IMG/VR virus record: IMGVR_UViG_2541047802_000010
Reading direction: 5' to 3' (one strand)
Length of the DNA: 43,115 bases
Origin: a virus
Lineage: Duplodnaviria; Heunggongvirae; Uroviricota; Caudoviricetes
Numbering within the stretch: position 1 is the first letter of the stretch; each line of letters begins with the position of its first letter. The notes under the pieces are model-generated. The model was not told the DNA's origin and searched no databases. It worked only from the letters and a program-made list of their open reading frames with translations. This document shows, in pieces, positions 37,046 to 37,185 of the stretch. A program made the translations under genes and the position numbers.

Positions 37046-37072
37046 AAAAAATAAGCCCGTGTAAGGGAGATT
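37046..37072. other. Prophage attR core (27 bp), coincident with the cyaR terminator
   Basis: Identical to 647-673; forms the 3' end of cyaR on the minus strand. Confidence 0.75.
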
Positions 37073-37132
37073 ACACAGGCTAAGGAGGTGGTTCCTGGTA
37101 CAGCTAGCATTTTATGGGTTATGTTTTTCAGC
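37046..37132 (-). ncRNA. cyaR: CyaR (RyeE) Hfq-dependent small RNA
   Basis: Reverse complement reads GCTGAAAAACATAACCCATAAAATGCTAGCTGTACCAGGAACCACCTCCTTAGCCTGTGTAATCTCCCTTACACGGGCTTATTTTTT, which matches my recollection of E. coli CyaR including the CCUCCU seed loop and terminator. Confidence 0.8.
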
Positions 37133-37185
37133 GAAACGGATGATAACCTTAATAAATGCAGCTGTATGTGATCGGTTTCTAAGAA
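37133..37185 (-). promoter_or_regulatory. cyaR promoter with putative class II CRP site
   Basis: TGTGA-N6-TCTAA at 37167-37182 is centred about 42 bp upstream of the cyaR 5' end; TATCAT -10 on the minus strand. CyaR is known to be CRP-activated. Confidence 0.45.

Follow-up and report, generated by a model that had tools for sequence, protein, structure and literature searches.

The attachment core of a P2-type prophage at locI coincides with the 3' end of the small RNA gene cyaR

The DNA analysed here, a stretch of 43,115 nucleotides (IMG/VR record IMGVR_UViG_2541047802_000010; called the window below), carries a full-length P2-type prophage, and the attachment core of this prophage doubles as the final 27 nt of the sRNA gene cyaR. 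The analysis shows the anatomy of both junctions, the identity of the core with the attP of phage P2, that the empty site exists, and that cyaR is intact in both sequence and fold. The explanation that we favour, with a probability of roughly 95%, is ordinary Int/IHF site-specific integration at locI, in which cyaR would be regenerated from the core carried by the phage. No sequence evidence contradicting this explanation was found.

Results

The cyaR gene and its terminator

A single Rfam match, to CyaR_RyeE (RF00112), was obtained across the whole window. It runs on the minus strand from 37134 to 37049, covers positions 1-85 of the 85 model positions, and scored 100.7 bits against the gathering value of 47 (E=4e-19). 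The first-pass annotation, made from the letters of the sequence, had taken the sRNA for CyaR, and the covariance model strongly confirmed it. The ends of the gene and its +1 (37132) were placed by the K-12 annotation; from 37132 to 37046 the window is identical to the annotated K-12 cyaR at 87 of 87 nucleotides. The 5' 60 nt of the gene belong to the bacterial flank, and the 3' 27 nt are the att core. Since cyaR lies on the minus strand, its upstream side is the side of higher coordinates, and yegQ/trhP was found there on the same strand, so that cyaR has its conserved place downstream of yegQ. In the RefSeq annotation of E. coli S88 (NC_011742 2169004-2169275) the gene is missing, despite its sequence identity with the K-12 cyaR.

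The CyaR terminator folds with -24 kcal/mol (z=-4.1), and the hairpin was called by the terminator scan as well. It is followed directly by the U tail UAUUUUUU (37053 to 37046), and the Hfq-binding 3' module of CyaR, consisting of the Rho-independent terminator and the U tail, is present in the sequence. The upstream hairpin of CyaR is formed by AGGAACCACCUCCU and has the conserved CCUCC-containing loop. The terminator hairpin has the same fold at the occupied and the empty sites. Given the 100% identity with the K-12 promoter and RNA that have been studied, normal expression of CyaR would be expected in the window strain.

Table 1. Coordinates of the features at the two prophage junctions and in their surroundings (positions in the window).
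Feature	Position	Strand	Basis
yegR, bacterial gene on the far side of the att site	1..318	+	RefSeq on identical DNA
Fossil P2-type arm in the 'bacterial' flank	552..646	+	repeats, alignments, shuffle test
Whole P2-type (Peduovirus) prophage including both cores, 36,426 bp	647..37072		cores, gene order, empty site
att core, attL copy (int side), orphan duplicate of the 3' half of the cyaR terminator	647..673		exact 27-mer
P2 Cox-binding region (690-763) and P' arm with two copies of TGTGGACA (761-787), attL	690..787	+	NC_001895 features
int, P2-type tyrosine integrase, pseudogene	753..1762	-	P2 Int match, 4-nt gap, RefSeq
IS21-like element (istB 13285-14034, istA 14046-15587)	~13232-15754	-	interrupts the capsid gene
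ogr late-gene activator (36726-36944) and terminator (36955-36978), right end of the prophage	36726..36978	+	P2 annotation transferred; hairpin observed
P2 P arm (Int arm-type sites 36983-37010) and IHF site (37014-37047) of attR	36983..37047	+	NC_001895 protein_bind features
att core, attR copy (ogr side), last 27 nt of CyaR	37046..37072		exact 27-mer; P2 attP alignment
cyaR (ryeE) sRNA gene, 87 nt	37046..37132	-	RF00112; equals K-12 cyaR b4438
CyaR Rho-independent terminator hairpin, 11 pairs, 6-nt loop	37054..37081	-	fold, terminator scan
Putative -10 hexamer TATCAT, -13..-8	37140..37145	-	sequence; inferred
Candidate CRP-type site TTAGA-N6-TCACA, class II-like position	37167..37182	-	position, conservation, K-12 promoter identity
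yegQ/trhP, U32 peptidase-family tRNA hydroxylase	37217..38578	-	Pfam Peptidase_U32; RefSeq on identical DNA

The att core and its two junctions

The 27-mer AAAAAATAAGCCCGTGTAAGGGAGATT is present in the window in exactly two copies (Table 1). Allowing up to 3 mismatches revealed no further match in the window, and 100 shuffles gave no match at all. In the reference record of phage P2 (NC_001895) this 27-mer is annotated as the attP core, at 24356-24382, and it aligns to the right-hand copy. It is also the published core of locI, the preferred attB of P2 in E. coli C, as stated in PMC3931495, citing Barreiro & Haggard-Ljungquist 1992; according to this source, a P2 remnant occupies locI in K-12. 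Between the two copies lies a P2-type prophage, whose genes run int-C-cox-B-A ... Q-P-O-N ... D-ogr, and the earlier designation of the repeat as a prophage att core proved right.

The outer edge of the right-hand core, at 37046, is the annotated 3' end of CyaR. Of the terminator, the 3' arm, the 6-nt loop and the U tail lie wholly within the core, together with 2 nt of the 5' stem arm. The proposal that the 27-bp core forms the terminator stem and U tail of cyaR could thus be upheld in the form that the core is the last 27 nt of the RNA, with only 2 nt of the 5' arm. The two further parts of that proposal were borne out as well: the 3' end of the sRNA is regenerated at attR, where cyaR is identical to the K-12 gene, and a terminator fragment is duplicated at attL, where it is an orphan of 27 nt. 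Both the 5' stem arm and the promoter of cyaR are absent at the attL copy. The attL core was also considered as a terminator of int and was rejected in this role, since on the minus strand it forms only an 8-bp GGGCUUAU/AUAAGCCC hairpin with the old flank, after which no U run follows.

In the three-way alignment of attL, attR and attP the arrangements B-O-P', P-O-B' and P-O-P' were obtained, respectively. At attL the order is old flank, core, P2 Cox sites, P' arm and int, and the int side of the core is 100% identical to the P2 attP. At attR the ogr terminator is followed by the P arm with the IHF site, the core and the body of cyaR. P2 and other peduoviruses share 96-98% identity with the DNA that leads up to the right-hand core and comprises D, ogr with its terminator, the P arm and the IHF site; the coordinates of the attR arm were transferred through an ungapped 673-nt alignment to NC_001895 with 96.4% identity. 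Naming the int junction attL and the ogr junction attR agrees with the alignment of the junctions to the annotated P2 attP.

The empty site and its occupancy in E. coli

For the predicted empty site, the left flank was joined through a single core to the cyaR flank. This sequence could be observed uninterrupted in strain ZJ3920 (NZ_CP020545) with 100% identity over 752 nt; thus the limits of the prophage are exact. The cyaR-yegQ flank was found in 5,424 of the 5,426 complete E. coli genomes, and the same attL junction, that is flank, core and P2-type int end, in 811 of the 5,426 (~15%). The uninterrupted long form of the empty site is present in 882 genomes. Genomes sampled lower in the ranking had a shorter empty form, again with yegR and yegQ contiguous, and an indel of ~170 nt, lying between yegR and the fossil arm (window ~330-500), distinguishes the long form from the short one. 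Beyond the U tail the DNA at attR differs from that at the empty site, and transcripts reading through the CyaR terminator would differ between the occupied and the empty sites.

A fossil P2-type arm beside attL

The flank adjoining the left-hand core carries a second arm of P2 type. A hairpin at 552-582 takes the place of the ogr terminator of P2 and is followed by TCGATGTGGTCAATG..GTGACCAG (595-634), in which TCGATGTGGTCAATG matches the P2 P arm at 15 of 15 bases and GTGACCAG comes next. The region of the fossil arm reached a local alignment score of 38, while shuffles gave 13.4 +/- 2.1 and none of 2000 attained that value. When the window and the unoccupied sites were scored for likeness to the P2 arm, values of 30-44 were obtained against 13.5 +/- 2.2 for shuffles, again attained by none of 2000. 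The fossil arm is present in the unoccupied E. coli sites too, and nothing comparable was found by local alignment in the flanks of Kluyvera and Enterobacter. Escherichia sp. MOD1 keeps the spacing of the IHF region, which E. coli lost in a 16-nt deletion. In K-12 the layers follow each other in the order fossil arm, truncated core, D'-ogrK, intact core and cyaR. Since arms and cores are layered in this way, the locus appears to record rounds of P2-type integration and decay. Judged by its sequence, the 'bacterial' flank at attL is a decayed P2-type attR arm, and this includes the unoccupied sites. The attL of the window, with its fossil arm, core and true P' arm, resembles a quasi-attP.

The core outside E. 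coli

The 27-mer was searched for in species-representative genomes, with exact matches only. The 21 loci recovered belong to Escherichia, Shigella, many Kluyvera species and two records that bear the label Enterobacter hormaechei. Eighteen loci were scanned for CyaR, and in 17 of them the 27-mer closes a full-length CyaR at its 3' end, in the same register. One locus departs from this, a second core on an E. ruysiae contig; since it adjoins P2 P'-side DNA, it represents another attL. The contig in question (NZ_CABVLQ010000001) has two cores, one with cyaR and the P2 P arm (attR) and the other at this attL, the flank of which does not have the fossil arm found in E. coli. The invariance of the 27-mer across Kluyvera was considered as evidence of conservation and rejected: the loci were retrieved by exact match, and the constancy of the 27-mer among them, being given by construction, carries no weight.

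Downstream of the Kluyvera cyaR genes that end in the 27-mer, DNA of at least four unrelated types could be distinguished, which suggests that the 3' end of cyaR may be a hotspot for multiple elements in Kluyvera too. The K. intermedia downstream type is a variant of the P2-like arm and was also seen in E. coli ECDA1023. The terminator stem of K. sichuanensis contains an uncompensated C.A. In the records B56 and B17-3, labelled Enterobacter hormaechei, the cyaR promoter and the flank on the yegQ side are nearly identical to those of E. coli (1 mismatch in ~190 nt), which could be due to mislabelling or recent transfer.

The fossil arm leads to a further reading, according to which the chromosomal attB is itself the scar of earlier P2-type prophages, and the 3' half of the E. 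coli cyaR was supplied by phages and is overwritten at each integration. The unoccupied Escherichia flank resembles the P2 P arm as described, Escherichia sp. MOD1 also keeps the IHF-region spacing, and K-12 has an extra layer in which a truncated core is fused to D' and ogrK. Furthermore, the 5' stem arm varies (U.G in E. coli, C.A in K. sichuanensis) as against the constant 3' arm. However, this constancy is itself a product of the exact-match search, the Kluyvera terminators are made of the same 27-mer without an adjoining P2-like arm, which fits a native bacterial core, and since the recombining partners are identical the origin of the core cannot be assigned. We therefore hold this reading tentatively, at somewhat less than even chances. 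It complements the integration at locI with regeneration of cyaR and does not displace it.

The promoter of cyaR and the CRP-type site

The promoter of cyaR is 100% identical to that of K-12, where transcription of the gene is governed by cAMP-CRP according to the literature. A CRP-like site had been noticed about 42 bp upstream of the gene in the first-pass annotation. It could be located as TTAGAAACCGATCACA from 37182 to 37167, with its centre at -42.5 relative to the +1 annotated in K-12, versus the canonical -41.5, so that there is an uncertainty of 1 nt. Its position was counted as that of a class II-type site, near -41.5 and overlapping the -35 region, with a motif score at the level of chance. 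Both half-sites are invariant in 13 of 13 Escherichia and Kluyvera sequences, that is, between the two genera, while the surrounding promoter DNA has diverged; the footprint ATTCTTAGAAA-NN-GATCACA is likewise unchanged in all 13.

A match of 8 of the 10 half-site bases of TGTGA-N6-TCACA is present, but this alone does not stand above chance, since 26 such matches occur in the window and 20.7 were expected. Thus the candidate site is supported by its position, its conservation and the published cAMP-CRP dependence, not by the motif score, and binding of CRP is likely on the ground of the 100% identity with the K-12 promoter, which has been studied experimentally. No consensus -35 was seen at the cyaR promoter, and the sigma-70 scan found no full promoter there, as expected of an activator-dependent promoter.

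The present state of the prophage

Across the compared stretches, 3.5 kb and 2.4 kb long, the window is identical to E. coli S88. The int gene has lost one AAAC unit of an (AAAC)3 run near 1106-1113, which results in a frameshift at codon ~219, and both halves flanking the frameshift are 99-100% identical to P2 Int. The gene is flagged as 'frameshifted' in the RefSeq record of S88. The frameshift allele was detected in 4 genomes (S88, MS7163, N53 and N62) versus 706 with the intact allele; the two were told apart with a 46-nt query, for which the intact alleles appeared as gapped alignments of 92% in a separate identity band. Since four independent assemblies carry the lesion and RefSeq flags it, an assembly error was ruled out. 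A functional P2-type integrase is therefore lacking in the window prophage, while int is intact in sibling prophages that occupy this site. This lesion bears on the current mobility of the prophage and not on the identity of the att site.

An IS21-like element encoding IstA and IstB breaks the gene of the P2-family major capsid protein at about residue 130, and the halves of the gene lie at 12785-13231 and 15755-16444. Owing to the frameshift in int and the split capsid gene the prophage should be unable to excise or to form particles. It is predicted to be immobilised and without particle formation, with cyaR unaffected. In the type strain ATCC 11775, the sibling prophage carries ISEc12, which is IS21-like, at another place, in a cargo AAA-ATPase gene.

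The cargo of the window prophage occupies the usual variable spots of P2, at 6618-8552 (plus strand), 20739-21839 (minus strand), and 28078-28920 and 28925-29611 (both plus strand). Two of the proteins match PADLOC candidates: a DUF7380 protein of 644 aa matches PDC-S39, and one of 366 aa with a RelA/SpoT domain matches PDC-S33. Also encoded is a DUF5677 protein, followed by a short tyrosine-recombinase-like protein of 228 aa, and no PADLOC match was obtained for either of them.

At the other end of the window, from 38579 to 43115, no yegP or baeR was found past yegQ, unlike in K-12. A gap of 487 nt is followed there by plus-strand ORFs with PcfJ-like, DUF1266 and DUF4034 domains, and the region is possibly a strain- or phylogroup-specific island.

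Discussion

The course of events that would account for these observations is the following. A P2-type phage would insert by Int/IHF-mediated recombination at its preferred chromosomal site, locI, whose crossover core also makes up the final 27 nt of cyaR, a CRP-activated and Hfq-dependent sRNA gene. The recombination would exchange the 3' end of cyaR for the phage copy, and since attP contains the identical 27-mer, an unchanged 87-nt cyaR would be rebuilt at attR, on the ogr side. The original 27-mer would be displaced to attL, 36.4 kb away, and there, promoterless and without the 5' arm, it should be inert as an sRNA. The rebuilt gene would keep its own promoter, with the CRP site at about -42.5, the TATCAT hexamer as -10 and no -35.

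It may be asked whether the integration is neutral for its surroundings. The new DNA downstream of cyaR might alter termination or give rise to CRP-cAMP-driven read-through antisense to ogr; such a transcript would cross the P arm and IHF site of attR and might couple the carbon status of the cell to late-gene control or excision. The arrangement would allow this, as cyaR (minus strand) and ogr (plus strand) are convergent and only ~100 nt apart, an intrinsic read-through of ~41% has been reported for the CyaR terminator in K-12 constructs (PMC9765468), the sequence past the U tail is not the same at attR and at the empty site, and the ogr hairpin, read in reverse, has merely a weak T tract on the minus strand. 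However, the mature 87-nt RNA with its hairpin and tail is the same in both states, the ogr terminator hairpin (9 pairs, 6 of them G-C) lies in the path of the transcript and may halt it, and in the window prophage an effect on excision would be without consequence, since int is broken. We consider such an effect of the integration unlikely. Little confidence can be given, too, to the more far-reaching proposal that read-through from cyaR acts as an antisense or roadblock input to P2 late-gene activation or excision, and that the Escherichia attB, as a fossil P2 attR, reflects a long co-evolution of phage and sRNA terminator.

That the repeat arose by chance or is a generic one (two similar terminators, for instance), or that the phage has a complete cyaR of its own, can be discarded, since nothing more than the bare existence of two copies speaks for it, while the 27-mer had no match in the shuffles, is the core of both the P2 attP and locI, and left an exact empty site, the junctions align as expected of attL and attR, and the P2 attP shares only 27 nt with cyaR, the 60-nt body of which is chromosomal in the empty sites.

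Integration at locI with regeneration of cyaR thus provides a worked example of a general rule, by which temperate phages choose conserved, dyad-symmetric 3' ends of RNA genes as their targets and bring a replacement end, so that the host gene survives. It is also of use for annotation, since prophage boundaries at the cyaR hotspot can be set to the base, and cyaR itself is absent from the RefSeq annotation of S88. The coincidence of cyaR with a phage target is correct but already known: PMC3603311 cites ryeE (= cyaR) as a phage target known since Wassarman et al. 2001, and the K-12 annotation also displays it. Beyond Bobay 2013 no explicit description of the overlap between the att core and cyaR was found in the literature. 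Only the fossil arm in the 'empty' sites and the possible read-through from cyaR into ogr are possibly worth more work.

Comparison with known systems

The closest counterpart is phage P2 itself. The 27-bp core of its locI/attP system is identical in the window and lies at the same chromosomal place, between yegR and yegQ, and the ogr-side P arm with the IHF site and the int-side Cox region with the P' arm are near-identical or identical to those of the P2 attP. As at locI, direct repeats of the core bracket a P2-type prophage, and related genomes have an unoccupied site with a single core. The window prophage is larger (36.4 kb, P2 being 33.6 kb), and it differs from P2 in its cargo genes, the IS21-like insertion in the capsid gene and the frameshifted int.

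The cryptic prophage PR-X of K-12 (ogrK-yegZ) has the same attR junction, in the order yegQ, cyaR, core, P arm and ogr, with 2 mismatches in ~300 nt, and its RefSeq annotation overlaps the last 18 nt of cyaR. However, PR-X retains only 629 bp (a D' fragment, ogrK and attR), in contrast to the full-length prophage of the window, and the left core of K-12 is truncated (..AAGCCCGTGTA/GCAGAG, the slash marking the break), whereas both cores are intact in the window. Compared with CyaR/RyeE (RF00112), the cAMP-CRP-activated repressor of ompX and other mRNAs, the window gene has no difference from K-12 at the sequence level.

Integration into the 3' end of RNA genes is represented by the P2-like Fels-2 and SopE-phi in ssrA and by Salmonella phages at ryeB/sdsR. 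In this class, as here, the core extends over the 3' end of the RNA gene, for which the element brings along a substitute, and an intact gene at one junction is accompanied by an orphan fragment at the other; the RNA of the window is, moreover, identical in the lysogen, in K-12 and in the empty sites. Two differences can be named: the target here is the terminator of an Hfq-dependent sRNA and not a tRNA-like acceptor/T arm, and it is ogr, not int, that adjoins the regenerated RNA gene.
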